64,000 nucleotides of DNA from an uncultured bacterium. Lineage in GTDB: Bacteria > Hydrothermota > E44-bin80. How positions within the stretch are numbered: the first letter of the stretch is position 1; each line of letters starts with the position of its first letter. The stretch lies in NCBI GenBank assembly GCA_964392665.1, contig CAYMQB010000003.1, positions 21,176-85,175 on the forward strand. The letters are read 5' to 3'. Shown here piece by piece: positions 48,302 to 64,000 of this stretch. The notes under the pieces are model-generated. The model was not told where the DNA came from. It made no database searches and saw only the letters and a list, made by a program, of their open reading frames with translations. The translations under genes were made by a program, and so were the position numbers.

Positions 48302-48628
48302 TTATGCTGTTGTTTTTCTGGCTTTTGCTACAGCTACTATTATACCCCAGACTGCAAAAGTAACTGCAGTAATTGTAATTCCTAATGCTATGTCTTTGAC
48401 GGGATTCTTGCCTATTAAGAATAGTTCTCCATTCCAGAGATGGTCTATTAGACCGAAAATAGCAGCACCAAAGAGTAAAAGTTTAAGCCAGGTAATATCG
48501 GGTCTGTTAGGTTTTCTTATGAAAGATACTATTATGGCGGTTATGGTGGGGATTGTGTAACACAAACCAAACCCTAGAAAAGTTGCTGTAAACAAAGTAT
48601 TAATAGGTACATTGGTTATTACGAACAT
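48302..48628 (-). CDS. small hypothetical membrane protein (3 TM) between the hdr/mvh operon and hyp genes
   Basis: 108 aa with three hydrophobic helices and no recognisable motif. Confidence 0.4.
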   Translation of the reverse strand: MFVITNVPINTLFTATFLGFGLCYTIPTITAIIVSFIRKPNRPDITWLKLLLFGAAIFGLIDHLWNGELFLIGKNPVKDIALGITITAVTFAVWGIIVAVAKARKTTA

Positions 48629-49550: not shown

Positions 49551-49559
49551 TTCTTCTCC

Positions 49560-50054
49560 TTATTGATTTTTTATGTAATTATAGATGTTTGCCAAGCCGA
49601 GCAATTTCCTTGTAGCTAGAACATTCTGAGATATCGGAGGTAGACCTCGCTGTTCCCTTTTTTTGTTCGTAAAATCTTCTATCTCATAGAGTCCACCGTA
49701 GTTGTGAAGTGCAGCAATCTGAGCTTCGTAGGATGGGTGCATGTATCCTTGTTTCACCGCAATATTCTTCAAGACAGCCATGAGGTCGGTTAAACATACA
49801 CCTTGAGGGCAGCGCTCCTGACAGGCATAACAACCTGTACATAGCCAGAGAAAAGAACTGGATAGAACTTCCTCTTTCATTCCCAAAACAGTCATCCTAA
49901 TAATTCTTCTTGGATTGAAATGTTCATTAACTTCCCTTATGGGACAGGATGCGGTGCAGGTTCCACAGGCAAAACAGTTTGTAAGGTGTTCTCCTCCAGG
50001 TTCTTTCATCACTTCATACTTGAATTGTGAATCAAGCTCTTCTACCTTTATCAT
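49560..50054 (-). CDS. heterodisulfide reductase subunit C-like 2x[4Fe-4S] ferredoxin
   Basis: CFACGTCTASCP and CTGCYACQERCP motifs. 164 aa. Confidence 0.75.
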   Translation of the reverse strand: MIKVEELDSQFKYEVMKEPGGEHLTNCFACGTCTASCPIREVNEHFNPRRIIRMTVLGMKEEVLSSSFLWLCTGCYACQERCPQGVCLTDLMAVLKNIAVKQGYMHPSYEAQIAALHNYGGLYEIEDFTNKKREQRGLPPISQNVLATRKLLGLANIYNYIKNQ

Positions 50055-50066
50055 CTTTCACCTCCA

Positions 50067-51530
50067 TCAAATATTCCTAGTTACCGTTTTATGAATTTTA
50101 CCAAGTGAATCATAAATTCTGACTTGCAAAGGCATATGACCTGGCAGGGAGTGGGTGGCACAGGCAAAACATGGGTCGTAAGCTCTGAAAGCCATTTCCA
50201 CCATATTCAGCAATCCATCGGAAACATTACCTTTCTTGATCAGTCCTTTTGCTGCCTTTTCTATGGACATACATATAGCGGCTGCATTATTAACGGTAGC
50301 TACTATCAAGTTACATTCGGTTATTTTACCTCTTTTATCCGTTTTGTAATGGTGGAAAAGTGTACCTCTGGGTGCTTCAACAACACCTACTCCTTCCTTT
50401 GGCTCAATGGTAGGGAAATTTCTTATGTGAGGATCGGTGATTTCCGTATCTTCTGCAAGTTCCTTCATTCTCTCTGCAGCATATAAAGCCTCGACCAGTC
50501 TTGCCCAGTGATATGCGAGCGTATTATGGGCTGGTTTACCAAGCGTATCAAATAGTTTTTCATACTCTTCTTGAGCCAGGGGAGTTGCCATTCCAGTAGC
50601 AGCATTTAACCTTGCAAGTGGGGCAACTCTGAAGACACCACTCTTCTTACCATCGACAAAGCCTTTCCATCCAACATTTTTTAGATACGGAAACTTCATA
50701 TAACTCCACGGTTCTACATGTTCTTCGATATGGTCCAGGTAGTCCCGCGGTTTAAATTTCGCAAACTTCTTGCCAGAAGGGTCTACCACTCTTATGTCAC
50801 CATCATAAAAATTGACCCTGTTCTTATCATCAACAAGTCCCATATAATAGGTTTTGTGTTTGTATATATCACCAACAATGAGATTTAAGTATTCTTCATT
50901 TTTAAGGACTATATCTTCGAATGCCTTGAGTGCGAATTGTGCAAATTCAACGGTCTCTTCAGCAGTTTTAAGAATTTCCTTTCTCTCTTTTTCACTCACA
51001 CCTCTTGATATGCCGCCCGGTAAACCACAAACTGGATGTATAACCCTTCCACCAAGCAGTGTTATAATATCCCTGCACTTTTTTCGTATTCTAATTACTT
51101 TTTTGCCTGTCCGTAAACCCACCGTTGCGATAACTCCAAGGATATTTCTCAGTTCAGGGGATGCCTGTGGTCCGACTATGAAGTCTGGACCACCCAAAAA
51201 GAAAAAGTGGAGAATGTGGTCTTCGAACATAAAAGCAGAATAGATTAGCTCTCTTATTTTCTTAGCTGCAGTGGGAGGTACTACCTTATATAGGTCATCC
51301 AATGTTTTGGTTGAAGCCATATGATGTGCAGTAGGGCATACACCACATATTTTGGGTGTTATTCTTGGCATCTCTTCTGCAAGACGTCCGGTAGAAAATT
51401 TCTCGAAACCTCTCAGCTCGGGAACCTGAAAGAAAGCTTTTTCCACATCTCCAAAGTTATCCAAGAATATCTCAATTTTACCATGTCCCTCGAGTCTTGT
51501 TACTGGTTCTATTGTGACTTTCTTTCCCAT
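50067..51530 (-). CDS. [NiFe] hydrogenase large subunit, Mvh/F420-non-reducing type
   Basis: N-terminal RLEGHGKIE and RICGVC (L1 motif). C-terminal DPCFACATHSLPGH (L2 motif). Start set at MGKKVTIEP (51530), 1 nt after the small-subunit stop. Confidence 0.85.
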   Translation of the reverse strand: MGKKVTIEPVTRLEGHGKIEIFLDNFGDVEKAFFQVPELRGFEKFSTGRLAEEMPRITPKICGVCPTAHHMASTKTLDDLYKVVPPTAAKKIRELIYSAFMFEDHILHFFFLGGPDFIVGPQASPELRNILGVIATVGLRTGKKVIRIRKKCRDIITLLGGRVIHPVCGLPGGISRGVSEKERKEILKTAEETVEFAQFALKAFEDIVLKNEEYLNLIVGDIYKHKTYYMGLVDDKNRVNFYDGDIRVVDPSGKKFAKFKPRDYLDHIEEHVEPWSYMKFPYLKNVGWKGFVDGKKSGVFRVAPLARLNAATGMATPLAQEEYEKLFDTLGKPAHNTLAYHWARLVEALYAAERMKELAEDTEITDPHIRNFPTIEPKEGVGVVEAPRGTLFHHYKTDKRGKITECNLIVATVNNAAAICMSIEKAAKGLIKKGNVSDGLLNMVEMAFRAYDPCFACATHSLPGHMPLQVRIYDSLGKIHKTVTRNI

Positions 51531-51531
51531 C

Positions 51532-52500
51532 CTAAACCTCCTTCCTTTTTCGGTGTAACAGGGAAGACGGTAAACTATACATATAGGATTGACCAGCAAC
51601 ATCCTCCAGGCTGTCAAACAAGGTTTTTTCCTCTTGTTCTGTCCTTGCTTCAGCCAGAGAAGCTATAGCGGAGAGAATTTTATCTCCCTGGTCTACCGTT
51701 CCTTTAATAGGACCGAAACATCCCCTGCATGGCATATTTGCATTTATACACCTTTCACCACATCCGGATCTTGTTGCAGGACCGAGACAAAAAATACCTT
51801 GTTCAAGAAAACATTTACGAGGATCTGGTTGAACCATATGTATCCTCTGGAATTTTTTGATAGAGAGTTTCTGTGGTTTGTTCTCACCTCTTGGGCAAGT
51901 ATCACACAAGGATTTGTCTGGTGCAAAGACCGAGCACTTTTCAGGTAACTTATTCTCAAGGATCGACGTTAATGCACCCATAATAAGATCCGGTGGAGGT
52001 GCACAACCAGGCAAGTAATAGTCAACATCCACAACCTGATCCAGGGTTTTCACCGTGTCATAGAATTCTGGCAAGGTAAGTTCATAACCATCAACATTGA
52101 CATTGGTTTTTGGAATAACTCCTTCCGGGTTTTGGACTGAAGGAAGCGATTTGTAGACAGTATTGAATATCTGTTCAGCATCCCAGAAGTTTGCAAGACC
52201 AGGAATGCCGCCTAAATGTGCACAGCTTCCAAAGGCAACGACGAGTTTGGATTTTCTTCTGAGAAGTTTCGTTATATTCTCTTGTTCCTGTGTCCTGATG
52301 GCTCCGTTTATGAAACTTACAGCAATTTCCCCGTCTTTCATAGTCTCAATATGCTTATATTTGAAATCCAATGCAACTGGCCAGAGAACAATATCAACTG
52401 CCTCTACGACTTTCAAGATATCCAGACCCAGATCCACGACGGCTTCTTCACAGCCGCCACAGGATGCATTCCAGTAAAAAGCCACTTTTGGTTTTCTCAT
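51532..52500 (-). CDS. [NiFe] hydrogenase small subunit, Mvh type
   Basis: N-terminal CGGCEEAV proximal-cluster motif and distal Cys clusters (CxxC...C...C). No Tat signal, so a cytoplasmic Mvh-type enzyme. Confidence 0.85.
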   Translation of the reverse strand: MRKPKVAFYWNASCGGCEEAVVDLGLDILKVVEAVDIVLWPVALDFKYKHIETMKDGEIAVSFINGAIRTQEQENITKLLRRKSKLVVAFGSCAHLGGIPGLANFWDAEQIFNTVYKSLPSVQNPEGVIPKTNVNVDGYELTLPEFYDTVKTLDQVVDVDYYLPGCAPPPDLIMGALTSILENKLPEKCSVFAPDKSLCDTCPRGENKPQKLSIKKFQRIHMVQPDPRKCFLEQGIFCLGPATRSGCGERCINANMPCRGCFGPIKGTVDQGDKILSAIASLAEARTEQEEKTLFDSLEDVAGQSYMYSLPSSLLHRKRKEV

Positions 52501-54134
52501 TCTCGTTCTCCTCCTCTCATCTCTTCAAGAATACTTTTTATTCTGCCTGATTCTTTCTTCCCGAGCCATTCTATCCTTATCTTCTCCTTAGGTATGCCGA
52601 ACTGCTCGATTAAATTGGCTGTTACAGAAAGCCGCTTTCTCAATATGAAGTTGCCTTTATTATAGTGACAAGCATCCGGATAACACCCCGATATAAGAAT
52701 ATTCCTTGCGTGTTTCTGAAAGGTTTTTAGAATGAAACCAACACTAATCCTACCCGTGCAGGGAACTTTTATTACTTTCACATTTTTATATCCATTCCCT
52801 GCCCATTTTTCATAAGCGCCGTATGCACTCCATTTGCACAGAAAGGCAACCGTATCATCCTTTTTTACCTTCTCATCTATCTGGTGAAAGAGATCAGAAT
52901 CTGTGTAACCTTCCAGTGTATTTGCACCTGTTGGACAGGTAGCGGTACATATTCCGCAGCCCATGCACAGCGAGGGGATTACTTTTATCTTATCTTCTTC
53001 TTGCACTATTGCACAATAAGGACAGACATATAGACAAAGTTTGCAGTGGGTTTCGGAGCATATATCGGAATTTATTTCGGCAACGGGAGTTCTTATCGAG
53101 ATATCTTTTAGGGTATTAATGGCGGAAAGAGCAGTACTCCTCGCTTCAATTAGTGTCTCTGCTACATTTTTGGAATATGCCGCACAGCCGCAAACAAATA
53201 TCCCTTTTGGATTAGAGTCCACAGAAAGTAAGGAGTTTAAGTATGTTGTAGGGAATTTCCCTTTGTCCCCAGTATCCAATGGAATTCTCAACATCGAAAG
53301 TACTTTTTCATCACCCACATAACCATGACTCAATATGACGTAGTCTGCTCTAATTTTCAAGAGGTCTCCAAGAATTTCATCCTCTACCTTAACATACAAA
53401 TTCTTATTTAGTTCTTCTATGGCAGAAGGTCTTCCCCTTATGAAATTGACATTGTATATATCCTTAAGTGTGTTGAAAAAGCTTTCGAGATTCCCATAAC
53501 TGCGCATATCTATATAAGATACATAAACCTCGGTATAAGGATTTTTGTCTTTTATCAGTTTTGCTTCCTTAAGACCTATGAAACAGCAAACCCTGGAACA
53601 GTGAGGCAGATAATTTTTATCTCTTGAACCCGCGCAGTTAATTATCACCACGCTCTTTAAATCCACTGGATTTATCTCACCAGATGATACTTTTTCCTCG
53701 AACTCGATTGGTTTTAGTACCTTTTTGTATCTACCATAACCGTAAGCTTCAACTTTCTCTATCTCGTAATCCTTCAATCCCGTTGCCACGACAATGGCTC
53801 CGACTAAAATCTTTTTCTTCTTCCCTTTCTGCTTCAACTCAACCTGATAGTTTCCTATATCCCCATTTGCCGCAATCATCTCTGTTTCAGTGAATATTTC
53901 TATGTTTTTCTGTTTTTCAATCTCTTCTATTAAAGGTTGCAATGTATGGGCATCTGGCATTCCTTCCGGATATAACTGATTGAGTCTACAAACCATTCCG
54001 CCGAGGGCTGGTTCCTTTTCTATAAGATAGACATGGTAATCTGCATAGGCGACATTCCTTGCTACTTCTAAACCTGCCACTCCACCACCAATCACAAGTA
54101 ATCTTTTACTCTGTGGTTCAAACTCGATACTCAT
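52497..54134 (-). CDS. HdrA-like FAD/[4Fe-4S] flavoprotein with a fused C-terminal MvhD-like domain
   Basis: FAD motif VIGGGVAGLE, ferredoxin motifs CKLCLYVCPYC and CMGCGICTATCP. The C-terminal ~110 aa (CTGRISVGF...ISGCYPDACHYNKGNF) are homologous to the stand-alone MvhD proteins at 57770 and 59224. Confidence 0.8.
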   Translation of the reverse strand: MSIEFEPQSKRLLVIGGGVAGLEVARNVAYADYHVYLIEKEPALGGMVCRLNQLYPEGMPDAHTLQPLIEEIEKQKNIEIFTETEMIAANGDIGNYQVELKQKGKKKKILVGAIVVATGLKDYEIEKVEAYGYGRYKKVLKPIEFEEKVSSGEINPVDLKSVVIINCAGSRDKNYLPHCSRVCCFIGLKEAKLIKDKNPYTEVYVSYIDMRSYGNLESFFNTLKDIYNVNFIRGRPSAIEELNKNLYVKVEDEILGDLLKIRADYVILSHGYVGDEKVLSMLRIPLDTGDKGKFPTTYLNSLLSVDSNPKGIFVCGCAAYSKNVAETLIEARSTALSAINTLKDISIRTPVAEINSDICSETHCKLCLYVCPYCAIVQEEDKIKVIPSLCMGCGICTATCPTGANTLEGYTDSDLFHQIDEKVKKDDTVAFLCKWSAYGAYEKWAGNGYKNVKVIKVPCTGRISVGFILKTFQKHARNILISGCYPDACHYNKGNFILRKRLSVTANLIEQFGIPKEKIRIEWLGKKESGRIKSILEEMRGGERE

Positions 54135-54167
54135 ATAGCCCCCTTCGTTATATTCTATTTCCTACTA

Positions 54168-54196
54168 AATATATAGGAGATTAGTCGATTTGTCAA
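54168..54196 (-). promoter_or_regulatory. candidate sigma-70 promoter (TTGACA-17-TATATT) for the hdrA-mvhGA-hdrCB operon
   Basis: Minus strand: TTGACA at 54191..54196, TATATT at 54168..54173. SD AAGGGGG 5 nt before the hdrA ATG. Confidence 0.35.
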
Positions 54197-54202
54197 GTTT
54201 TT

Positions 54203-54220
54203 TTGTGAAAAAAATCACAA
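54203..54220. promoter_or_regulatory. Rex (NADH-sensing repressor) operator-like palindrome TTGTGAAAAAAATCACAA
   Basis: 18-bp inverted repeat matching the Rex consensus TTGTGAA-N4-TTCACAA at 13/14 half-site positions. 6 bp upstream of the predicted -35. Confidence 0.45.
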
Positions 54221-54307
54221 AGTGGTTAATTTTTTTATGGGGAAATACGTTTATTAGTTTTTTATATTATACTATTCAGAAATTATTGAGGTACTTTTTT
54301 AGTTCCT

Positions 54308-54480
54308 TTAAAGAAATATTTCTTGTTTCACGGGATTCGGTCCGAGTTTCTTCACCTCTTCTGTAAATTCGTTTATAGCTTTACGAATCTTGGACCTTGG
54401 GATACAGAGACCCAAGGATGGATACTCTTAAGCCAGGGGAAATAAAGGATATACTATGTTCCGTTGAGAACTTTTTCGAA
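54308..54480 (-). pseudogene. decayed mvhD remnant (C-terminal ~55 codons, frameshifted)
   Basis: The minus-strand translation ...LKSIHPWVSVSQGPRFVK / AINEFTEEVKKLGPNPVKQEIFL* parallels the MvhD C-termini (SWISAGEGPGFAKVITEFTEKIKKLGPNPAKEEVFL). It needs a frameshift and has no start codon. Confidence 0.5.
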
Positions 54481-54508
54481 ATAGAGGAGTCTACTGAGGG
54501 GTGTTATG

Positions 54509-55042
54509 CTAATTCTTTAGTCTAAAACGTCGGTTCTGAAGTTTAGAAGTAGAAATGCTATTAAGGCTTTGCCTAATTATTGTATTCACTGTTTTGGGAA
54601 CTGCCTTTCTTACTTCAAGAGTGCATTGCTCGCTGAAAGTCGTATTGTCTTTAATTTCAATAGCATAAATGTCTATCTGTTCCGGGATACTTACACCACA
54701 CCTTTTTCCGATCTCGATTGCGGTTGCAAAATTTACATCGTGGGGTGAGGATATGTGTATTGTTGAACTAAAATCAGCGACCTTTACTTTATAAAGGGTA
54801 CCAGGATTTCCTTTCTTTGTTTTTATAGCATCAATGACGATTAGTTTTTCATATCCAACGATTAGATCTAATATAGCTAATCCCCCGATACTCGCTTCAA
54901 TCACATCTATATCCTCGTCCGGTTCCCATGCAAAACAGGAGGTATGGTCTTTTAATTTATCTTCTATACGGTGAGCAATCTCTATTCCTATTCCATCATC
55001 CGACAGAATGGGATTTCCCAGTCCTAAGATTAGAATCTTTGC
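54509..55042 (-). CDS. hydrogenase maturation protease (second copy)
   Basis: ILILGLGNPILSDDGIGIEI paralog of the protease at 41876. Start set at MAKILIL (55042). Confidence 0.8.
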   Translation of the reverse strand, partial: AKILILGLGNPILSDDGIGIEIAHRIEDKLKDHTSCFAWEPDEDIDVIEASIGGLAILDLIVGYEKLIVIDAIKTKKGNPGTLYKVKVADFSSTIHISSPHDVNFATAIEIGKRCGVSIPEQIDIYAIEIKDNTTFSEQCTLEVRKAVPKTVNTIIRQSLNSISTSKLQNRRFRLKN

Positions 55043-55089
55043 CATTTTTAGTAAATGTTTAATCAACTACATTACATTTCAAAGAAGGC

Positions 55090-55246
55090 TGTCATTGCGA
55101 GTTTCTCTTCTTGCCCTGTGTAATACCATTATGCACAAAACATTTTTCTATTACACGGGGCTTGTTCCACAAATGCGAAGCAATCCCATATTCACTTTCT
55201 GTCAATATGAGATTGCCACGCCTGCCACAGACAGGCTCGCAATGAC
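55090..55246. repeat. MITE/REP-like element copy B (TIR GTCATTGCGAG ... CTCGCAATGAC)
   Basis: See copy A. Intergenic between mvhA copy 2 and the protease gene. The ORF-track ORF 55008..55697 partly translates this repeat (LALCNTIMHK also appears in the antisense ORF 37250..37927). Confidence 0.65.
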
Positions 55247-55301
55247 GGGGTTTACTGACTATTTACCATCTGATACTCTCGTAATCTGCTTCTCTGATAG
55301 T

Positions 55302-56786
55302 CTATTTTATCTCCCGGCTAAGTCTCTTAACTACTCTACCGTCTGGAGCATGTATAATAATTTCCATAGGCATATGACCCGGAAGGGTATGGGTGGCACA
55401 CGCAAGGCAGGGGTCGTATGCACGAAAAGCCATTTCTACCATATTCAAGAGACCCTGGTTTACTTTCCAGTTCTTTATGAGTTTTTGAGCCGCTCTTTTA
55501 ACAGACATATGCATACCCGCATTATTATGCCCTGTCGCAACTATCAGATTCACTCTCTCTACCATACCTTCTTTGTCTACCCAGTAATGATGCATAAGTG
55601 TTCCTCTTGGTGCTTCACATATGCCGACACCTTCACCAGGTGTCTTGGTGGGTATATTTCTTACCTTCTTGTTTGTTATTTCCTTGTCTTTTATTAGCTC
55701 TACCATCCGCTCACTTGCATAGAGATTTTCAATAATTCGAGCCCAGTGCATAGCCAGGGTATTATGCGCCGGTTTTCCTCCCAGGATTTCATACATCTTT
55801 TCATAGGCTTCCTGTGCTGCAGGTGTTGCCATCCCATCTGCTACATTTAATCTTGCTAACGGTGCTACACGATATATGCCACTATCTTTGCCATCCACAA
55901 ATCCCTTCCATCCGATTTTCTTCAAGAAGGGGAATTTTAGGTATGACCACGGTTCAACATGTTCCCCAATGTAATCTAAATAATTGTCCTCGTTAAACCT
56001 GCAATATTCCTTACCATCCGGGTCAACTACCTTTACTTCCCCATCATAGAAATTAACCTTATCATTTTTATCAACAAGTCCCATATAATAAGTCTTATGA
56101 TAATATATATCGCCTGTTATTAGATCAACATAATCCTTATTCTTCAAGATAAGGTCATCAACTACAAGTTTTAGCGTATATTTGCCAAATTCCACTAATT
56201 CCCCTGACATCTGTTCGATTTCCTTGCGTTCCTCTTCGGTAATGGGGTGAGATAGACCTCCCGGTAATCCGGTTACAGGGTGAATGGTCTTTCCACCTAT
56301 TATCTCTTGAACCCTCTGGGCATTGTATCTATTTTTAATTACTACTTTGCCAACATCCATCCCAACTTTACCAATAACACCGAATAAGTTCCTCTGTGCT
56401 GGAGGAGCATCGGGACCCATCAGAAAATCAGGAGCTCCACCGAGAGCATATATATGGGCAAGATGAGAATGGACCATATGTGCACAGTAACCCAATTCTC
56501 GCAATTTTTTTGCTGCTGAAGGGGGTTCTACCTTAAACACAGCATCCAAACATTTTGATGATGCAATATGGTGGGCCCAGGGACATACTCCACAAAGCCT
56601 TGTGGTAAGCCTTGTCATCTCTTCAACCGGTCTTCCCTGACAGAATCTCTCAAATCCTCTAAGCTCGACTACCTGAAAATAGGCATCTTCAACATTACCT
56701 TCATCATTAAGAAAAATTTCTATTTTTCCATGGCCTTCTAATCTGGTAATGGGCTCAATCGTTATCCTCTTTTTCTTCTCTGACAT
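55302..56786 (-). CDS. [NiFe] hydrogenase large subunit, Mvh type (second copy)
   Basis: RLEGHGKIE, RLCGVCPWAHH and DPCLACATHTLPGH motifs. Start set at MSEKKKRITIEP (ATG 56786, SD GGAG). The ORF-track 84-aa N-terminal extension overlaps the small-subunit gene. Confidence 0.85.
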   Translation of the reverse strand: MSEKKKRITIEPITRLEGHGKIEIFLNDEGNVEDAYFQVVELRGFERFCQGRPVEEMTRLTTRLCGVCPWAHHIASSKCLDAVFKVEPPSAAKKLRELGYCAHMVHSHLAHIYALGGAPDFLMGPDAPPAQRNLFGVIGKVGMDVGKVVIKNRYNAQRVQEIIGGKTIHPVTGLPGGLSHPITEEERKEIEQMSGELVEFGKYTLKLVVDDLILKNKDYVDLITGDIYYHKTYYMGLVDKNDKVNFYDGEVKVVDPDGKEYCRFNEDNYLDYIGEHVEPWSYLKFPFLKKIGWKGFVDGKDSGIYRVAPLARLNVADGMATPAAQEAYEKMYEILGGKPAHNTLAMHWARIIENLYASERMVELIKDKEITNKKVRNIPTKTPGEGVGICEAPRGTLMHHYWVDKEGMVERVNLIVATGHNNAGMHMSVKRAAQKLIKNWKVNQGLLNMVEMAFRAYDPCLACATHTLPGHMPMEIIIHAPDGRVVKRLSREIK

Positions 56787-56787
56787 C

Positions 56788-57777
56788 CTATTTTTTCTCC
56801 TTCTCAACCTTTCTAAGCAAAGACTTAGGCATCGAGAACCTGTAGAATGTACCCAGTGGGTCCTTAATCTGACCGACCAATTTTTCGATATCTTCCTCAG
56901 ACAACTGGGTCTCTTTATCAGAGATTGCCAAGATAGAGGTGATTGCTGAAAGGATGCTTCCACCTTGGTCAATGGCAGCAGCGGTTGCACCCAGGCATCC
57001 TCTGCATGGCATATTAGCTCTGATACATTTTGCATCACAACCTGCTCTGGTTGCCGGACCGAGACAGATAATCCCCTGTTCTAAGAGACACTTGTCCGGG
57101 TTTAATTCAATTTCATGTGGTCTATAGATTCTCTCAATGTTTATCTTTTTAGGCTTTTCTCTTGGGCACTCATCACAGAGAGCTTTCTCCGATGCTAATA
57201 CGGAACCCTTTGGTGGGAGTTTTCCGCTTATTATAGCATCAAGTGCCTGATTTATTTGTGTAACCAATGGTGGACATCCGGGGAGGTAATAGTCGACTGT
57301 AACTATGTCATCAAGTGAAAATACCTCATCGTAGAATCTCGGCAGGGTCAATTTGTGTCCTGTTTCATCCTTCCATTCCGGCAGGGGAACGACAAAATCC
57401 GGATTTACAGTACTCGGTGTATCCATATAAGATTCCTTAAAGATCTCATCCTTGTTAGTTACATTTGCAAGCCCTGGAATTCCTCCGTAACAGGAACAAC
57501 TACCAAAAGAGATTAAAATCTTGGATTTTTTCCTGAAAAGTTTTGCAATATGTTCATTTTCGCTGTCGCGGATAGCACCATGATGAAATGTAATGTCAAT
57601 ATATCCATCATCCCATTTCTCAACTTCCTTAAGTTTTGTATCCATAATTACAGCAGCGTAAACGATATCTGCTATTTTAATAACATCCAGGATTTTCTCG
57701 TTTATATCAACAATCTCGACATCGCAGCCAGAACAGGTTGCTCCTCTTGCTATTGCCAATTTTAACTTATCAGCCAT
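56788..57777 (-). CDS. [NiFe] hydrogenase small subunit, Mvh type (second copy)
   Basis: ARGATCSGCDVEIVD proximal-cluster motif. Start set at MADKLKLAIA (57777). Paralog of 51532..52500. Confidence 0.85.
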   Translation of the reverse strand: MADKLKLAIARGATCSGCDVEIVDINEKILDVIKIADIVYAAVIMDTKLKEVEKWDDGYIDITFHHGAIRDSENEHIAKLFRKKSKILISFGSCSCYGGIPGLANVTNKDEIFKESYMDTPSTVNPDFVVPLPEWKDETGHKLTLPRFYDEVFSLDDIVTVDYYLPGCPPLVTQINQALDAIISGKLPPKGSVLASEKALCDECPREKPKKINIERIYRPHEIELNPDKCLLEQGIICLGPATRAGCDAKCIRANMPCRGCLGATAAAIDQGGSILSAITSILAISDKETQLSEEDIEKLVGQIKDPLGTFYRFSMPKSLLRKVEKEKK

Positions 57778-58210
57778 TTTTACCCTTTCCCCTTTTTGTA
57801 GGTCCGAAAGGACTGGGACCAAGTTCTGTAATCTCATCTATAAAGTTGTTTACCACTTCCTGGAATCTGCCACCTTCTCCTGCAGATATCCATTCCAGAC
57901 GCAATCTTTTTCGGTCGAGTCCAAACTGCTGAAGCATAATGCGCAGTAAAGCCATTCTCCTTCTCGTTCGGTAGTTACCTCCAATATAATGGCAGTCCCC
58001 TGGATGACATGCCGCGACCAGAATACCATCCGCACCCTTCTTGATTGCCTCGAGAATAAACTCTGGATCCACCCTCGCCGAGCACATAGCCCGTATTACC
58101 CTGAAGTAGGGTTTGATCTGTAACCTGCTTACTCCGGCAAGGTCCGCCCCGGCATAAGAACACCAGTTACAGCAAAAAACAAGAATCTTAGGTTTGAAAT
58201 CCTTATTCAT
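57770..58210 (-). CDS. MvhD-like [2Fe-2S] protein (methyl-viologen-reducing hydrogenase delta subunit family)
   Basis: CCNWCSYAGADLAGVSRLQ ... RVMCSARVDP ... ACHPGDCHYIGGNY carries the MvhD Cys pattern. Start set at MNKDFKPKILVF (58210). Confidence 0.75.
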   Translation of the reverse strand: MNKDFKPKILVFCCNWCSYAGADLAGVSRLQIKPYFRVIRAMCSARVDPEFILEAIKKGADGILVAACHPGDCHYIGGNYRTRRRMALLRIMLQQFGLDRKRLRLEWISAGEGGRFQEVVNNFIDEITELGPSPFGPTKRGKGKNG

Positions 58211-58218
58211 TTTTATTC

Positions 58219-59037
58219 TCACATAAATAGCTTTATCAAAGTTACGATACCCAGTAAAATTACAATGATTCCAATTATTAAACTCAGCATATTCGTTTTC
58301 ATTCTTTTTACAGTAAAGACCGATAATGGTACCGATAAAACAGCTCCTATTATTAAATAAGGAGCCAGTTTCCAATCTATAACGGACTTTGTTAGAGAAT
58401 AGGCAATAACACCAACAAGACAGGTTGACCCTTCTGCCAGAGAAGTTATGCCTATGGCACTTTTACTGTTTATCCCCGAGAGTATTTGGCCACCGGTCAC
58501 TACGGGTCCATAACCTCCACCGCTCATTCCTTTATTAAAGGATGCAATTGTCCCGAGAGCGAAGATTTTTTTCCATGAAAAGATATATTTTCTTTTTAAG
58601 GTAGACAGTATCATCACACCAATGCCAAAAACCAGAAGCCCGATGTAGAGTTTCAACCAGAATGTCGGTATGGAGATAGCTAAAAAGACTGCCGCCAGGG
58701 TTCCGAAAATGCTGCAGGCTGCAAGTACAATAGCGGTCTTAAGATGAAAAGGCACTTCCTGTTTGAAGGTATTGATGTATCCAAGAGCGCTCAGTTTTCC
58801 AATTATTTGTCGAAACTCTGTTGTTCTGGGTTTAAGATTTACATTCCCTACCTTATGGTGTCCGAAAGCCGCTAACAGACCTGTAATTAGCTCTGAAAGC
58901 AGAATTGCTGGTACTACCTGTAGAGGGGAATAGCCCATCATCAGAAGAACCGGTGTTAAAATCGTACCATATCCCATACCAAGCGTTGAATCTATATATT
59001 CGCAGATAAATGCAATAACTACAATGGTGATTCCCAT
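58219..59037 (-). CDS. TauE/SafE (DUF81) family membrane transporter, embedded in the hydrogenase cluster
   Basis: Polytopic with a duplicated 4-TM unit and Gly-rich NKGMSGGGYGPVVTGG. Start set at MGITIVVIAF (59037), because an upstream small ORF ends at 59051. Confidence 0.65.
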   Translation of the reverse strand: MGITIVVIAFICEYIDSTLGMGYGTILTPVLLMMGYSPLQVVPAILLSELITGLLAAFGHHKVGNVNLKPRTTEFRQIIGKLSALGYINTFKQEVPFHLKTAIVLAACSIFGTLAAVFLAISIPTFWLKLYIGLLVFGIGVMILSTLKRKYIFSWKKIFALGTIASFNKGMSGGGYGPVVTGGQILSGINSKSAIGITSLAEGSTCLVGVIAYSLTKSVIDWKLAPYLIIGAVLSVPLSVFTVKRMKTNMLSLIIGIIVILLGIVTLIKLFM

Positions 59038-59050
59038 TTCGATGGTTAAG

Positions 59051-59212
59051 TTAAAAATCACTTGTGATTCCTTCCAATGCAGTATCAATTATTGTAAGCA
59101 TCTGTTTGGTTTTAAATCCTTTCTGCTCCATTGCTCTCGATGGACACGCGGCAATACAACCCCCGCATCTTTTACAAAATGCCTTTGTGAGTTTTGCCTT
59201 TTTTGTATCCAA
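59051..59212 (-). CDS. possible small single-motif [4Fe-4S] ferredoxin-like peptide (53 aa, TTG start); not in the ORF track
   Basis: The minus-strand ORF reads (L)DTKKAKLTKAFCKRCGGCIAACPSRAMEQKGFKTKQMLTIIDTALEGITSDF* and contains CxxCxxCxxxCP. It fills the 186-nt gap between mvhD and tauE. The SD is weak and the start codon non-canonical. Confidence 0.25.
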   Translation of the reverse strand: MDTKKAKLTKAFCKRCGGCIAACPSRAMEQKGFKTKQMLTIIDTALEGITSDF

Positions 59213-59223
59213 TCCTCGTATGT

Positions 59224-59649
59224 TTATAAGAAGACCTCTTCCTTAGCAGGATTTGGTCCAAGCTTCTTTATCTTTTCTGTAAATTCGGTAATTACTTTGG
59301 CGAATCCAGGACCTTCTCCTGCAGATATCCAGGACAATCTGAGACGATCGGATTCTAAACCTAAGTTTTCAAAAATGTTTTTCAATATAGCAAACTTTCG
59401 ACGAGCCTGATAATTTCCTTTCTGATAGTGACAATCTCCTGGATGACAACCCGCCACCAGCACACCATCCGCTCCTATTAGGAACACTCTTATAATAAAG
59501 AGCGGATTCACTCTACTGGAACACATAACTCTAATAGTTCTCAGAGAGGGTGGCATTTGTAATCTGCTTACCCCTGCGAGATCAGCGCCAGCATAGGAAC
59601 ACCAATTACAAAGAAAACCTACTATTTTTGGTGCAAATTTTTCATTCAT
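59224..59649 (-). CDS. MvhD-like [2Fe-2S] protein (paralog)
   Basis: LCNWCSYAGADLAGVSRLQ ... GCHPGDCHYQKGNY. Start set at MNEKFAPKIVGF (59649). Confidence 0.75.
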   Translation of the reverse strand: MNEKFAPKIVGFLCNWCSYAGADLAGVSRLQMPPSLRTIRVMCSSRVNPLFIIRVFLIGADGVLVAGCHPGDCHYQKGNYQARRKFAILKNIFENLGLESDRLRLSWISAGEGPGFAKVITEFTEKIKKLGPNPAKEEVFL

Positions 59650-59659
59650 ACTCGCTCCT

Positions 59660-60769
59660 TTAATCCTCGACTTCAACAAACTCATCTGTTTCGAAAGTAG
59701 TGACAGGAATTTGCTCTTCTACGTCCCTTCCCGGGAGATAATCAAACATTTTCTGAACAGAATCTCCAACTTTCAAAAAGATAGTTGAAATTGGTATATT
59801 AGCGGGACACACATCTGCACATAAGCCACATCCGACGCAGGAAATGCCAACATGGGTTAATCTACCAATCTGATAAGATATTGTATCAGGGGGAACTCTT
59901 AATCCTCCTCTTCGTTTAAGCTGCATTTCATAGACGGAAGGCTTATGTTCATAGGTCTTGGAATCAGAATAACACAAGTTGCAATAACAAATAGGGCATA
60001 CCTTACTGCATCCATGACAACCTATACATTTTCCAAAGGTCTCTATCAATCCCTTCAAACCAAACTTTTCAATTCCAATTTCATCAAAAAGTCTCTTCTT
60101 CTCATCTTTTCTTTTATTCCGCATAGAAACCACTTCTTCTGATTCAAGTTTTCCTTCCACAAACTCTCCATCAATTCCATCCACAAATTGTTGCCCTTTC
60201 TCGGTATTTAGAAAAATTTCGCATTGATTGTCAATGTCTTTCTTGCCTATTAAAGTAACAGTTATATCTGCAGTATAAGGTAAAAAATGCTCGCAACCCA
60301 TACAAGTAGGTCTCGTATCAGGAACTATTTCGCCTCTTTTAGTTGCATCCCAGTATTGGGAAAGTTTTTTGTCTATATCGCCATTTACAGCCATTTCAAG
60401 TGGATAGACTCCAGCACAGGTCGATGATACTAACAGTAAATTTTCCAGACTCCCTTGTTTTCGTTTCACAAGCTCTATAAATGCTCTTAACTCACAAGGT
60501 CTTACAACGGCCACAACAGGGTCAACAACAGAACCTCTTAGCGTAAGATTAGATAACAATTTACCCGCATTTGCAGGCATCAGAGGGAAAAGTGGCACAG
60601 CATCTTTAAGCATGTCTAAGCTGGTAATGAGGGAATATGCTACTGCACCGTTACCATTAATTTTTCTAAGTGTGAAAACTCCTTTAACCTTTCCGCTCTT
60701 CAAAAGGAACTTAAGAAGCTCTTTAACAGCTTCTTCCACACTTTTATTTGTTTTAAGAACTTTCGTCAT
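59660..60769 (-). CDS. FrhB/FdhB-family iron-sulfur flavoprotein-like subunit (copy B)
   Basis: The N-terminal domain is FrhB_FdhB_N-like (RPCELRAFIE, SSTCAGVYP). The C-terminus has CIGCHGCSKVCPICYC and CVGCGLCADVCP [4Fe-4S] motifs. Confidence 0.5.
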   Translation of the reverse strand: MTKVLKTNKSVEEAVKELLKFLLKSGKVKGVFTLRKINGNGAVAYSLITSLDMLKDAVPLFPLMPANAGKLLSNLTLRGSVVDPVVAVVRPCELRAFIELVKRKQGSLENLLLVSSTCAGVYPLEMAVNGDIDKKLSQYWDATKRGEIVPDTRPTCMGCEHFLPYTADITVTLIGKKDIDNQCEIFLNTEKGQQFVDGIDGEFVEGKLESEEVVSMRNKRKDEKKRLFDEIGIEKFGLKGLIETFGKCIGCHGCSKVCPICYCNLCYSDSKTYEHKPSVYEMQLKRRGGLRVPPDTISYQIGRLTHVGISCVGCGLCADVCPANIPISTIFLKVGDSVQKMFDYLPGRDVEEQIPVTTFETDEFVEVED

Positions 60770-60771
60770 TT

Positions 60772-61908
60772 TTATATTTCCACCTTATGTAATTCATCTT
60801 CTTCATAAGTTTTTAGAGGAAGTGACTCCTCTACACTTTTGCCTGGAACATAATTAAATAATTCTTGAGAGTTATCAGCCACAAAATTAAATATCTGTGA
60901 TACATCAATGGACATAGGACAAGCATCTTCACACGCGCCACATCCTACACAAGAAAGACTCATATGTGTCATTCTCCCAAGATGAAACAACAAGGTATCA
61001 GGAAGAAATCGCAGCGCTCCTTTGCTATCTGCCCTCATTAAGTAATCATCGGAAGGAAGTTTCATTATCTCTGATTCAAAGTAACACTGTCTGCAGTAAC
61101 ATATGGGACAAGCACTCCGACAATTATGACAATTTATACATTTACTGAAGGTATCAAGTAGATTGTCAATACCCATAACTTCAGATTTTAGTCTTTCCTG
61201 GACCTCTTTTCTCTTTTTCTTTCTGACCTCTATGATCTCTTTTGCTTTTTTCTCCCAATTGTCCACTGATTTTTCTGCTTCGATATCCATCTCGTTTAAG
61301 ATGCTTTTACCACTTTCATTGTTTGGAATAAGAAAAATGATTTTATCTTCTGTTCCCAGTATCCCTATATGCAAATTAGACTGACAAAACCCAATGTCTG
61401 TCCCTATAAATTTATCGCATACCTGACAAGCTGGACGTGTAGATTCATTTCCCCACTGTATGTCATTCTGAGCAGAGTGAAGAATCTTATTGAATTTATC
61501 CATAGCTTCCTTGGGTCTCCCAAGATAATCCTTTAATGGCAATACACCTGGACAGTCGATTGAGATAAGGAATATATTTTCTAAATTTACTTGCTCTAAT
61601 TTTGAAAGTTCAACTGCGGCTCTTACTTCACACGGTCTCATAATAGCAGCAATCTTTCTATTTGTTTTCCCCATTTTTGTTATACTACTTAATGCCTTAG
61701 CTCCCTGAACCGGCATAACAGGAGGGAGAGGATTTGCATCCTTAAGAAGGGATTTATTCTGAACCAAGACCCATGCAAATGAATCCCCTGCAGGGACCTT
61801 TATAGGTATAAGAACTGCATCGAAACACTTTTTGTCCAATCCTTTTTCCAAAAAATTAATGATCGTTTTTGCTATGTTTTCGGTCACATTTAGAATTGCA
61901 CCCTTCAT
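60772..61908 (-). CDS. FrhB/FdhB-family iron-sulfur flavoprotein-like subunit (copy A, tandem paralog)
   Basis: IMRPCEVRAAVE and ISIDCPGVLP in the N-terminal domain. CINCHNCRSACPICYC and CVGCGACEDACP in the C-terminus. Collinear with the paralog downstream. Confidence 0.5.
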   Translation of the reverse strand: MKGAILNVTENIAKTIINFLEKGLDKKCFDAVLIPIKVPAGDSFAWVLVQNKSLLKDANPLPPVMPVQGAKALSSITKMGKTNRKIAAIMRPCEVRAAVELSKLEQVNLENIFLISIDCPGVLPLKDYLGRPKEAMDKFNKILHSAQNDIQWGNESTRPACQVCDKFIGTDIGFCQSNLHIGILGTEDKIIFLIPNNESGKSILNEMDIEAEKSVDNWEKKAKEIIEVRKKKRKEVQERLKSEVMGIDNLLDTFSKCINCHNCRSACPICYCRQCYFESEIMKLPSDDYLMRADSKGALRFLPDTLLFHLGRMTHMSLSCVGCGACEDACPMSIDVSQIFNFVADNSQELFNYVPGKSVEESLPLKTYEEDELHKVEI

Positions 61909-63572
61909 CTCAGTGCCTCCACAACTTCTTGATGGAGCTGTGTAGTTGTGGAATGTTTAACTGATGCAGCTCCAGATGGACAACTTCCTACGCAGTTTCC
62001 ACATCCTCTACATAAGACTTCATTTACTACTGAAACCCTTTTCATCTCATCAAAGTAAATAGCCCCATAAGTGCAGACCTCAAGACAAGTTTGACATCCA
62101 ATGCAAAGAGCTTCCGAGATTTCAGAAGTTTTTATTTCAGGCTCTAATTTCTTGCCCGGAATAAGTGAAGAAAGTATTCTTCCTGCCACTGCCTGTGCTT
62201 GAACTATTGATTCTGGAATATTCTTTGGGCCCTGCGAGCAACCGGCAATAAATATTCCTTCCATGGATGTGCTAACAGGTGCAAGTTTTGGATGTTCTTC
62301 TTGGAAAAATCCTCCATCTCCTTGAGAAATCCTGAGCATTTCTGCAAGTTTAGCTGTATCACCACTTGGTTCAATCGCCGGTGCAAGAATGACCATATCA
62401 ACCGAAGAGGTCTTTTCCTCTCCTTCCTCAGTCTTATACTTTATTACCTTATCCATAACTTCCACTTCGTTAGAACGAATGAAATTAACTCCCTTAGCTT
62501 TAGTATCTTCATAGAATTTCTGGCGAGCCTTGCCCGGAATGGATAAATCCTGGTAAAATTCTGTTACATTAGCATCCGGGAGTTTAGATTTGATATAATT
62601 TGCAAACTTAAGGCAATACATACAGCATACCCCTGAACAATAACCTCTTTCTTCTCGCCCCACACAATGGATAATACCAATAGACTTTGGGGGTTTACCA
62701 TCTTTTCGAAGAATCTTTCCGTCTATATTCATTCTTTCAAATTCTAAAGCAGTATAGACATTGTCGTATTGTCCATATCCATATCGAGGAAGCTGCTTTA
62801 GATTAAGCATACTGAACCCTGTAGCTACTACGATTGCTCCAACTCTGAGTTCAAGTTCCTTATTTTCTCCTGTTTTTACTTTTACAACAAAATTACCAAG
62901 AAATCCCAACACTTCTTCAACTTCACTGTTAGTATAAAGTTTGATGTCTTCGCTTTGTTTCACCTCCTGAATCCTCTGAGATATAATATCAAGGCTTGAT
63001 TCCATTCGTGGAAGAAGTTTATCCAATTCTTTTACTTTTCCACCTAAAACATCAGTTTTCTCCACCAAGTGGATTTTTCTATCTCCACTGGCAAGTAATA
63101 AACTCGCCTCCATACCTGCAATACCTCCTCCTATTACGAGAACATCGGGATTTGTCTCTATTTCTTTCTTAACAAGAGCTTTGTGAAAAGGAATCCTCCT
63201 AAGAGCTGCTCTTATATATCTTATTGCCCTTTCAGTAGCGAGCTCCTTATCGGTTATAATCCAGGCACATTGCTCCCGTATGTTAGTCAGTTGAAAGAAG
63301 TACGGGTTAATACCTGCTTCCTCGCATACCTTCATGAATGTAACTTCGTGCTGCTTTGGCGAGCAAGCAGCAACCACGATACGCGTTAATCCATGCTTTT
63401 GTATACTCTCTTTAAGGAATTTCTTGCCATTTTCGGAACACAAAAGTTTGTGTCTCTCAACTACATCTACATCAGGCAGAGAAGAAATTGTTTTCATAAC
63501 CCTGTCAATATCTACATTATCTGCTATATTAGGTCCGCATTCACATACATATACACCTATTTTCTCTTCCAT
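61905..63572 (-). CDS. HdrA-like FAD/[4Fe-4S] flavoprotein with an extra N-terminal Cys-containing domain
   Basis: FAD motif VLVIGGGIAGMEAS. The C-terminal 2x[4Fe-4S] reads CIGCQTCLEVCTYG and CRGCGNCVGSCP. The N-terminal ~140 aa contain VYVCECGPNI...CSENG...AACSPKQH. Start set at MEEKIGVYV (63572). Confidence 0.8.
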   Translation of the reverse strand: MEEKIGVYVCECGPNIADNVDIDRVMKTISSLPDVDVVERHKLLCSENGKKFLKESIQKHGLTRIVVAACSPKQHEVTFMKVCEEAGINPYFFQLTNIREQCAWIITDKELATERAIRYIRAALRRIPFHKALVKKEIETNPDVLVIGGGIAGMEASLLLASGDRKIHLVEKTDVLGGKVKELDKLLPRMESSLDIISQRIQEVKQSEDIKLYTNSEVEEVLGFLGNFVVKVKTGENKELELRVGAIVVATGFSMLNLKQLPRYGYGQYDNVYTALEFERMNIDGKILRKDGKPPKSIGIIHCVGREERGYCSGVCCMYCLKFANYIKSKLPDANVTEFYQDLSIPGKARQKFYEDTKAKGVNFIRSNEVEVMDKVIKYKTEEGEEKTSSVDMVILAPAIEPSGDTAKLAEMLRISQGDGGFFQEEHPKLAPVSTSMEGIFIAGCSQGPKNIPESIVQAQAVAGRILSSLIPGKKLEPEIKTSEISEALCIGCQTCLEVCTYGAIYFDEMKRVSVVNEVLCRGCGNCVGSCPSGAASVKHSTTTQLHQEVVEALR

Positions 63573-63573
63573 T

Positions 63574-64000
63574 TTAACCACCCAGTGAAAGTATTTTCCC
63601 AACTGCTGCTTCCGATTGAGCCACTGAATCCTGAATATCTTTTGGATCCTGAGCACACCCTACAATAAATATTCCCTCTCTGGATGTCTCCACAGAGGCA
63701 ATTTCTGAATGCTTTTCAGCAAAGAACCCATGTTCGTCCTGAGAAATTCCAAGAATTTTAGCCAATTTCGATGCATCTTTTCTTGGTTCAAGTGCAGGTG
63801 AAAGAATTACCATATCTACTGGAAGACTACCTCCTTTATCATCAATTTTATACTTTACACTCATCCCTTTCTCTTCCTCTTTTACTGCAATATCATCAAA
63901 TCGAATTATATCTACTCCCATAGTTTTTGTTTGTTCATAGAACTTTTCATAGGATTTGCCTGGAATACAGAGGTCAGAACAAAATTCAGATATCTTAACA
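63574..64000 (-). CDS. HdrA-like flavoprotein, C-terminal part (gene continues beyond the window end)
   Basis: ...VDMVILSPALEPRKDASKLAKILGISQDEHGFFAEKH...GIFIVGCAQDPKDIQDSVAQSEAAVGKILSLGG* parallels the C-terminal region of 61905..63572. The frame stays open to position 64000. Confidence 0.7.
   Translation of the reverse strand, partial: VKISEFCSDLCIPGKSYEKFYEQTKTMGVDIIRFDDIAVKEEEKGMSVKYKIDDKGGSLPVDMVILSPALEPRKDASKLAKILGISQDEHGFFAEKHSEIASVETSREGIFIVGCAQDPKDIQDSVAQSEAAVGKILSLGG

Follow-up and report, generated by a model that had tools for sequence, protein, structure and literature searches.

The gene string at the end of the 64,000-nucleotide (nt) stretch of DNA analysed here, hereafter the window, raises the question of whether a tight run of hydrogenase and Hdr-type genes encodes one enzyme or two. 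Open reading frames (ORFs), Pfam and NCBIfam models, and gene calling on longer contigs give the minus-strand order hdrA1 (partial), hdrA2, fdhB1, fdhB2, mvhD1, a 53-codon ORF, tauE, mvhD2, mvhG1 and mvhA1. An earlier note, made from the sequence alone, had listed these genes in this order, and all of them are present on that strand at about the places it gave. The note had taken them for one operon and one complex, in which an Mvh-type [NiFe] hydrogenase is wired to two HdrA and two FrhB/FdhB-type proteins that replace HdrBC. Spelled out, such a complex would extend from hdrA1 to mvhA1 and would bifurcate or confurcate electrons between H2, ferredoxin and nicotinamide adenine dinucleotide (phosphate), NAD(P), with MvhAG and MvhD feeding the flavin of HdrA1/HdrA2 and the FdhB-like proteins, putative flavoproteins, standing in for HdrBC. 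We consider this unlikely. Our own reading, held with moderate confidence, is that the region comprises two units set end to end, one of them a gene cassette that recombined into the 3' end of a large hdrA-type gene, hdrL.

At least 24 longer contigs from metagenomes also carry the window sequence and give a view past the window end, as does the window's own contig in its full extent (L001). Upstream of the string, all on the same strand and with gaps of at most 71 nt, stand a fusion gene of 442 residues, an hdrB homologue, a helix-turn-helix (HTH) gene, an hdrL of 1499 residues, dsrE, tusA, mvhD and the full 421-residue hdrA1. The fusion protein (L001 1-996) has three parts, a response-regulator receiver, a GcvH-like domain and an HdrC-type ferredoxin, and by manual alignment, a weak test, the GcvH-like domain carries Gly at the lipoyl-lysine position. 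The HdrB homologue scores 288 bits against TIGR03288 and the HdrC homologue 122 bits against TIGR03290, while TusA matches PF01206 at E 2e-19 and DsrE matches DsrE/DrsE_2 at E 5e-12. HdrL (L001 1402-5901) begins with an HdrA1-like half that includes Cys197 and an inserted NfnB/GltD module for NAD(P)H, and continues with an HdrA2-like half in which the N-terminal domain is present and Cys197 is not. The mvhD ahead of hdrA1 is the third MvhD gene of the string. Thus, the absence of HdrBC on which the earlier note was built holds only inside the window: neither HdrB nor HdrC was found within 55302-64000, but homologues of both open the same-strand string upstream, which argues against an integrated complex that dispenses with them, and both are encoded again at 48684-50054.

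The relation between the two parts of the string emerges from comparison with a contig of a close relative (L084), which encodes the nearest homologue of MvhA1 (91% identity) and has the order [receiver-GcvH-HdrC]-hdrB-HTH-hdrL-tauE-mvhD-mvhG-mvhA-protease. The flanking proteins of the two organisms are 84-91% identical. In blastn, L084 1825-7635 corresponds to L001 114-5895 and L084 7497-9922 to L001 12699-15118, whereas L001 5896-12698, a block of 6.8 kb (window 59211 to about 66013), has no counterpart in L084. This block contains dsrE-tusA-mvhD-hdrA1-hdrA2-fdhB1-fdhB2-mvhD and is bordered on either side by a copy of 139 bp from the 3' end of hdrL, so that L084 7497-7635 matches L001 twice. 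The 53-codon ORF (59051-59212, minus strand), which has one CxxCxxCxxxCP motif, falls at the downstream copy. It shares 39 of 50 residues with the C-terminus of the L084 HdrL, aligns to positions 597-642 of the HdrA2 model and reaches its stop codon after EGITSDF, where the L084 HdrL ends in EGVTGDF and the L001 HdrL in AALES. Because of this match, the shared ending and the 139-bp duplication, we read the ORF as the final 53 codons of hdrL, cut off from the rest of the gene. The earlier note had counted it as a small ferredoxin-like subunit, a role that we reject for an orphaned hdrL 3' end with a single Cys motif and a TTG start that abuts GAGGA and so has no properly spaced ribosome-binding site. 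The junction of the block was found in at least 24 independently assembled contigs. Additionally, HdrL is 80-94% identical to its L084 counterpart except over the final ~400 residues, where identity is 69-83%, a suggestive though not decisive sign of a recombination breakpoint. No donor of the cassette was identified, and the HdrL of a more distant relative (L008) is no closer match. In L084 we also noted a second receiver-GcvH-like gene just ahead of the three-part fusion gene (501-2707).

The genes on the downstream side of the block belong together. The tauE gene (58219-59061, minus strand) encodes a TauE/SafE-family permease of 280 residues from a GTG start or 272 from an ATG at 59037, which scores 100.9 bits against Pfam TauE (cut-off 32.6; E 1e-28) and has no match in NCBIfam or the PDB. 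In L084, tauE likewise lies between hdrL and mvhD, the two TauE proteins are 87% identical, and mvhD2 (57770-58210, minus strand; 146 residues, FlpD E 4e-53) is 91% identical to its orthologue there. By gene order and identity, TauE is therefore to be placed with the hdrL-mvh unit and not with the FdhB/HdrA unit, and what had looked like a membrane protein amid a cytoplasmic redox complex stands beside the hydrogenase's own MvhD. The hydrogenase itself is encoded by mvhG1 (56788-57777, minus strand), a small subunit of 329 residues (Oxidored_q6 E 5e-23, VhuG model E 2e-66), and mvhA1 (55302-56786, minus strand), a large subunit of 494 residues. MvhA1 has both Ni-Fe ligand motifs, RLCGVCPWAHH (RxCGxCxxxH type) and DPCLACATH (DPCxxCxxH type), and matches the VhuA model at E 3e-124, with 415 bits against an equivalog cut-off of 800, as well as the structures 5odc_F (E 1e-113) and 7t2r_D (E 4e-116). 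MvhG, MvhD and a maturation protease are all encoded beside it, the protease (54509-55045, minus strand; 178 residues, HycI type, TIGR00072 E 2e-28) 256 nt 3' of mvhA1, a position kept in L084, L085, L088 and L089. By its motifs and family matches the enzyme is an ordinary Mvh-type (group 3c-like) [NiFe] hydrogenase. Among the relatives of MvhA1, the order [HdrA/HdrL-type]-mvhD-mvhG-mvhA recurs in L085, L089 and L090, and these operons with their protease carry no FdhB-like genes.

We therefore distinguish a first unit made up of window positions 55302-59211 and the upstream genes as far as hdrL. By analogy with MvhADG-HdrABC, it would be an Mvh-HdrL-HdrBC-type enzyme in which MvhA oxidises H2, the electrons reach the HdrL flavin by way of MvhG and MvhD, and HdrL splits them between ferredoxin and/or NAD(P) on one side and a thiol/disulfide site in HdrBC on the other. 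A cassette inserted into hdrL and a window edge that cuts off the upstream genes account for most of what had drawn notice, namely the missing HdrBC, the TauE in mid-string, the small ferredoxin and the duplicated MvhD.

Several observations weigh against this division, and the first is that the relic proves recombination only, leaving the polarity (insertion here, or later deletion in L084) unproven. From hdrA1 to mvhA1 the junctions measure, in order, +1, -4, +2, +10, +11, -11 or +13, +8, -8 and +1 nt; every one is thus at most 13 nt or overlapping, against 0-12 nt or overlapping in the earlier note, and the space of 186 nt that the note remarked on, between mvhD1 and the ATG start of tauE, is the one that contains the 53-codon ORF. 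Nor does the string hold promoter or terminator signals above chance. In a scan of 54000-64000 compared with shuffles, promoter-like sites were no more frequent than in the shuffles (21 vs 26.7), terminator-like counts barely exceeded them, with no convincing signal inside the gene string, and the sole strong promoter-like site (11/12 matches) lies at 54196-54168, just upstream of the neighbouring hdrA-mvhD fusion. Furthermore, in L008 mvhG follows about 50 nt after the last mvhD of the cassette and hdrL stands before dsrE, so another lineage also has the hdrL-cassette-mvh arrangement, which may be under selection. The same tight junctions, lack of internal signals and L008 gene order also speak for the integrated complex. 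Against it, L084 keeps the same hydrogenase operon without the cassette, and in other genomes the cassette mostly occurs without a hydrogenase, so that the step from one operon to one complex, taken in the earlier note, is not supported. Both units may be co-transcribed in this organism and may share ferredoxin, but one obligatory complex is not favoured.

How widely the cassette occurs was surveyed with a profile of the FdhB-like proteins against species-level genomes. In the best 80 loci, all from metagenome-assembled genomes (MAGs), ORFs were matched by blastp, and locus counts use only loci with enough flanking sequence (40 split-type loci upstream, and 52 and 71 loci downstream for mvhA and mvhD, respectively). 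The gene fdhB2 follows fdhB1 in 75 of the 80 loci, and hdrA1-hdrA2 stand directly upstream in 61, of which 49 are complete; in 14 others a fused HdrL plus MvhD takes their place. This fused variant, HdrL-MvhD-FdhB-FdhB-MvhD, was seen in Desulfobacteraceae MAGs (L068, L073) and, like HdrL itself, contains the NAD(P)H-binding NfnB/GltD module. MvhD precedes hdrA1 in all 40 split-type loci, at least 36 of which have TusA and at least 34 DsrE, while neither occurs in any of the 14 fused-type loci. A further MvhD follows fdhB2 in 46 of 71 loci. Clustering of the unmatched ORFs of the 80 loci produced no near-universal gene beyond these eight, and no partner of the molybdopterin type (FdhA/ElpA), which would be detectable there only as a recurrent unmatched family; HdrB and HdrC, too, are missing from the eight-gene cassette in most loci. 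Hosts include Cloacimonadota, WOR-3, Dehalococcoidia, Anaerolineales, Aminicenantes, Armatimonadota, Fermentibacteria, Thermoplasmata and Methanomassiliicoccales, and no cultured carrier of the split cassette was found among the best 80 loci. The block is thus a conserved and, judged by these genomes, widespread cassette, apparently uncharacterised.

A hydrogenase is rarely part of it. Downstream and on the same strand, mvhA occurs in only 6 of 52 loci, a recurrence that the integrated complex can claim for itself, while the remaining 46 cassettes are without a downstream hydrogenase. Five of those six mvhA loci (L014, L029, L038, L045, L056) have an HdrA/HdrL-type gene of their own just upstream of the hydrogenase genes, and L036 has only mvhD. 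The pairing of the NfnB/GltD module with the absence of TusA and DsrE also speaks against an H2:ferredoxin:NAD(P) enzyme, since it suggests that NAD(P)H and TusA/DsrE replace one another. In the closest relative of the cassette (L004 6016-8683, proteins 85-98% identical, from a MAG labelled Cloacimonadota E29_bin43), no mvhG or mvhA follows mvhD1; ~0.7-1.4 kb downstream lie genes for a hydrogenase maturation protease and for a TauE-family protein 39% identical to that of the window. Clustering of the unmatched ORFs, with names read from the sequences without hidden Markov model scoring, gave as recurrent extra neighbours ArsR-type regulators (13 loci), NfnA-like proteins (11), pyridine-nucleotide-disulfide oxidoreductases (11), YeeE/YedE (9) and rhodanese (5). 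Seven loci (L006, L007, L015, L055, L062, L064, L067) have a second module after the cassette, consisting of HdrL-MvhD, one or two FdhB-like proteins (24-37% identical) and an HdrC-like protein, and the NfnA-like gene is also present in several loci with such a module.

The two HdrA proteins of the cassette, which the earlier note had already recognised as paralogues, complement each other. The window contains the 3' 141 codons of hdrA1 (63574-64000, minus strand), whose full product aligns to HdrA residues ~143-556 in the PDB alignment (E 1.5e-99). It covers the flavin adenine dinucleotide (FAD)/thioredoxin-reductase domain and the inserted ferredoxin domain, keeps the CxxC with the Cys197 equivalent, and has neither the N-terminal domain nor the C-terminal ferredoxin domain. 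HdrA2 (61905-63572, minus strand; 555 residues) scores 517 bits against the HdrA2 model and matches 8rvu_a at E 9e-124 in two blocks that skip residues ~244-320; it has the N-terminal iron-sulfur (FeS), FAD and C-terminal 2x[4Fe-4S] domains and is without the inserted ferredoxin domain and the equivalents of Cys194 and Cys197. The CxxC is invariant in 50 of 50 HdrA1 homologues, and across 51 HdrA2 homologues Cys is not among the three commonest residues in the Cys194 and Cys197 columns. Equivalents of Glu356 and Lys409, read from the alignments with the numbering of PMC12054007, are kept in both proteins (LEFERM, CCMxxLK). Since the domain maps are complementary and HdrL naturally joins two such halves in the same order, HdrA1 and HdrA2 probably form an asymmetric heterodimer, as Chadwick et al. 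2022 (PMC9012536) proposed for complementary tandem HdrA genes of anaerobic methane-oxidising (ANME) archaea.

The two FdhB-like proteins, FdhB1 (60772-61908, minus strand; 378 residues) and FdhB2 (59660-60769, minus strand; 369 residues), are paralogues with 35% identity, each with a 2x[4Fe-4S] part, the first combining a fold of the FrhB/FdhB family with an HdrC-like ferredoxin part, and are followed by the final gene of the cassette, mvhD1 (59224-59649, minus strand; 141 residues, FlpD E 2e-54). Their assignment to the FrhB/FdhB family in the earlier note stands. Pfam support is marginal, FrhB_FdhB_C reaching 21.9 bits for FdhB1 and 28.0 bits for FdhB2, below and above the cut-off of 23.3, respectively, and FrhB_FdhB_N was undetected at E 0.01 or better in either, a result unfavourable to the integrated complex. 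Homology is nevertheless clear from sequence and fold: both match, along most of their sequence, 9t1s_M (FdhB1 E 8e-34 over residues 24-359; FdhB2 E 3e-32), ElpB of Elp-Hdr (8rvu_E) and FdhB of Fdh-Hdr-Fmd (7bkb_E), and an AlphaFold model of FdhB1 (predicted local distance difference test 74, predicted template-modelling (TM) score 0.78) retrieved in Foldseek ElpB 8rvu_E (E 4e-15, TM score 0.64) and FdhB 7bkb_E (E 7e-13), and after these the Pyrococcus furiosus sulfhydrogenase beta subunit and the modules in Fsr, Frh and HCAR that resemble FrhB. They are, by these matches, clear homologues of the FdhB/ElpB proteins of methanogen Hdr complexes, and neither HdrB/C proteins nor plain ferredoxins, in agreement with the earlier note. 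Fifteen Cys are invariant in 18 sequences that include both paralogues (C93, C119, C161, C164, C257, C260, C263, C267, C270, C272, C275, C320, C323, C326, C330), and these sets fit four predicted [4Fe-4S] clusters in each protein, the number held by ElpB (PMC12350162). Methanogen structures show how FdhB/ElpB docks on HdrA together with MvhD, and the family transfers hydride in these organisms (PMC12350162); in this respect the homology counts in favour of the integrated complex.

It also counts for another explanation, namely that the cassette is an Elp-like module for electron donation and bifurcation with a soluble cofactor (F420H2 in archaea; another deazaflavin, a flavin or NAD(P)H in bacteria), with TusA and DsrE in an accessory role, as cluster or cofactor sulfur supply or in regulation. 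The closest relatives of the FdhB-like proteins are precisely the ElpB and FdhB that dock on HdrA through MvhD (PMC12350162), HdrA-FdhB clusters without FdhA in ANME-1 have been read as F420-linked (PMC9012536), and some hosts of the cassette are archaeal (Thermoplasmata, Methanomassiliicoccales). Most hosts are bacterial, however, for instance Cloacimonadota, WOR-3, Aminicenantes and Fermentibacteria. F420 is not known to occur in these four lineages. The conservation of TusA and DsrE also exceeds what an accessory role would lead one to expect, with TusA in 36 of 40 split-type loci and the CPxP Cys of TusA and Cys-Glu of DsrE kept without exception (42 of 42 and 38 of 38 sequences, respectively), and YeeE/YedE and rhodanese genes recur nearby. 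Taken together, we judge an Elp-like cofactor module quite improbable.

For our preferred division into two units, this leaves the chemistry of the second, which extends from window position 59212 through 64000 to ~66013 and would build a complex of its own, free of HdrBC. HdrA1 would bring to it the Cys197 equivalent and the inserted ferredoxin domain, as the exit to ferredoxin in the manner of methanogen HdrA, while the N- and C-terminal FeS domains of HdrA2, together with MvhD and an FdhB-like protein, would form an arm as in Fdh-Hdr and Elp-Hdr. The two FdhB-like subunits, with their predicted four [4Fe-4S] clusters each, would be joined through the two MvhD proteins, the second FdhB-like/MvhD pair standing in for the absent HdrBC branch, and this high-potential branch would reduce a persulfide, or a thiosulfonate derived from thiosulfate. 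Because TusA and DsrE are nearly always found with the split version and never with the version that has the NAD(P)H module, they point to sulfur chemistry, and not pyridine nucleotides, for the split version, and protein-bound sulfane sulfur is, from gene neighbourhood, the most likely substrate of its high-potential branch. In this context, we put forward, tentatively, that the cassette encodes a cytoplasmic, HdrBC-less reducer of protein-bound sulfane sulfur (TusA/DsrE persulfide or thiosulfonate) that conserves energy by flavin-based bifurcation, spread among many lineages of uncultivated anaerobes, bacterial and archaeal, and here plugged into an H2-oxidising Mvh/HdrL operon. Two points tell against this proposal: the link to sulfur is one of gene neighbourhood alone, and we recognised no sulfur-catalytic site in the cassette (no HdrB/CCG domain, molybdopterin or sirohaem subunit).

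In an alternative scenario the cassette would run in the oxidative direction, similarly to the sulfur-oxidising Hdr-like (sHdr) system, taking sulfane sulfur from TusA and DsrE and passing electrons to ferredoxin or H+, with Mvh evolving H2. PMC11094781 and PMC6067878 describe TusA and DsrE-type transferases that supply sulfur to the sulfur-oxidising Hdr-like complex, and a GcvH-like domain is indeed fused to the HdrC homologue upstream. That domain, however, is by the manual alignment without the lipoyl-lysine and is part of the first unit, not of the cassette, and the cassette itself has no HdrB1/B2/C1/C2 set. The hosts, moreover, appear to be fermentative anaerobes, and the oxidation of sulfane sulfur to ferredoxin or H+ is judged thermodynamically unfavourable. 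We regard an oxidative cassette as very improbable.

Each part of the string has relatives among known systems. The first unit is like MvhADG-HdrABC (PDB 5ODC/5ODH) in that MvhA1, MvhG1 and MvhD2 are homologous to its subunits, with an HdrA-type protein, HdrB, HdrC and a protease encoded in or beside the string. It differs in its diderm bacterial host, in an HdrA partner that is a fused double HdrA of 1499 residues with an NfnB/GltD insertion, in an HdrC homologue fused to receiver and GcvH-like domains, and in a tauE between hdrL and mvhD. To our knowledge, the heterodisulfide of coenzyme M (CoM) and coenzyme B (CoB), CoM-S-S-CoB, is not to be expected in bacteria. The cassette, for its part, shares with Elp-Hdr (8RVU), Fdh-Hdr-Fmd (7BKB) and the Hdr-Vhu-Fwd complex of M. 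maripaludis (9T1S) an FdhB/ElpB-type and an MvhD-type protein beside HdrA. In contrast to these complexes, it has neither FdhA/ElpA nor HdrBC, combines two divergent FdhB paralogues and two MvhD with a split HdrA, lacks a detectable FrhB_FdhB_N domain, includes TusA and DsrE, and occurs mostly in bacterial hosts.

The HdrA pair recalls the tandem HdrA5/6 and HdrA12/13 and the HdrA-NfnB of ANME archaea (PMC9012536), which show the same complementary distribution of the N-terminal FeS domain and Cys197 and also exist in fused and NfnB-inserted versions. Clusters that pair HdrA with FdhB in the absence of FdhA were also reported from these genomes. These ANME systems are described from methane-oxidising archaea only, in connection with F420 or CoM/CoB (PMC9012536), whereas the cassette is found in many bacterial and archaeal lineages together with sulfur carriers; the term TusA, the only one counted, has zero occurrences in the text of that paper. 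A further difference from the ANME fusions is that the Cys197 half stands first in the HdrL described here. In Desulfobacterium autotrophicum HRM2, an HdrL (HdrA/glutamate-synthase fusion) is followed by mvhD, and loci VII and VIII have fdhB without fdhA (PMC2702500); by their described gene content these loci, known from a genomic description only, resemble the fused variant of the cassette, but no split HdrA pair and no TusA or DsrE are given there.

With sHdr-LbpA the cassette has in common a flavo-FeS complex of the Hdr-like kind encoded with TusA and DsrE-family carriers, and ArsR-type regulators and YeeE-type importers nearby. The sHdr system of sulfur oxidisers is oxidative and consists of HdrB1B2C1C2 with a lipoylated LbpA, whereas the cassette has FdhB-like and MvhD proteins, no CCG-domain proteins, and HdrA proteins that retain equivalents of Glu356 and Lys409, the residues named for the bifurcating HdrA. 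Membership of the sHdr family was rejected, as there is no sHdrAB1B2C1C2 set and the sole GcvH-like domain, that of the first unit, has Gly in place of the lipoyl-lysine in the manual alignment. QmoAB(C) of sulfate reducers likewise consists of two adjacent HdrA-derived flavoproteins with unequal domain content and serves sulfur metabolism; the cassette differs in having MvhD as a separate protein and in its FdhB-like subunits. Membership of QmoABC was also rejected, the best models being HdrA and not Qmo, with neither QmoA nor QmoB among the NCBIfam hits listed, and no QmoC-like subunit or apr genes being present at the locus.

In sum, the docking of FdhB/ElpB and MvhD, tandem and fused HdrA proteins, FdhB-only Hdr clusters and HdrL-MvhD-FdhB loci are already known. 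A literature search turned up no biochemical characterisation of the arrangement, and no description of the eight-gene cassette, its wide bacterial spread or its link to TusA and DsrE, although an earlier description may exist. HdrA-based flavin bifurcation is known biochemically almost only in methanogens, where HdrBC and the CoM-CoB heterodisulfide form the end of the high-potential branch. Should the cassette couple the reduction or oxidation of ferredoxin to sulfane-sulfur chemistry, it would represent a new class of acceptor for flavin-based bifurcation and help to explain how fermenters dispose of electrons in sulfidic sediments; lineages that carry it (Cloacimonadota, WOR-3, Dehalococcoidia, Anaerolineales, Aminicenantes, Thermoplasmata) dominate anoxic sediments. 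There is also a lesson for annotation, in that hydrogenase, Hdr and FdhB-like genes packed closely on one strand do not have to encode a single enzyme: comparative genomics here splits the string into two units and exposes a ferredoxin-like pseudo-gene.

The surroundings of the string contain a second hydrogenase, and the claim of the earlier note that the organism keeps two Mvh hydrogenases side by side proved correct. The neighbouring cluster (48684-54134, minus strand) is of the conventional mvh-hdr kind and comprises an hdrA-mvhD fusion (52497-54134), mvhG2 (51532-52500), mvhA2 (50067-51530), hdrC (49560-50054) and hdrB (48684-49550); MvhA2 and MvhA1 are 60% identical. A complete [NiFe] maturation set, hypF, hypC, hypD, hypE, hypA and hypB together with a second HycI-type protease (41876-48243, minus strand), stands after both hydrogenase clusters on the same strand. 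Between hdrB and hypF, 55 nt after hdrB, lies a gene for a hydrophobic protein of 108 residues with no Pfam match (48302-48628, minus strand), and a gene for a DUF2339 membrane protein of 1003 residues (38753-41764, minus strand) adjoins the hyp/protease set. In L084 the hyp genes and the second mvh-hdr cluster (12041-20059) run on the opposite strand, inverted with respect to the first hydrogenase operon, and thus the synteny of both hydrogenase clusters is not fixed in the lineage. The hyp region of L084 also includes FmdE-like and rhodanese genes.

As for the host, its proteins find their nearest named relatives in MAGs labelled WOR-3 or Cloacimonadota. An Rfam scan of the whole 64 kb gave no family at gathering score, so no tRNA, rRNA or riboswitch was found in the window. 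Two divergent efflux systems of the resistance-nodulation-division (RND) type, each with an outer-membrane factor, an HlyD-type adaptor and an AcrB-type pump, occupy 25046-30938 (minus strand) and 31243-37141 (plus strand), and since they carry outer-membrane factors the host is a diderm bacterium. A MarR-family regulator gene follows the second RND system, and the G+C content is 0.46 at 26-28 kb against ~0.39 elsewhere in the window.

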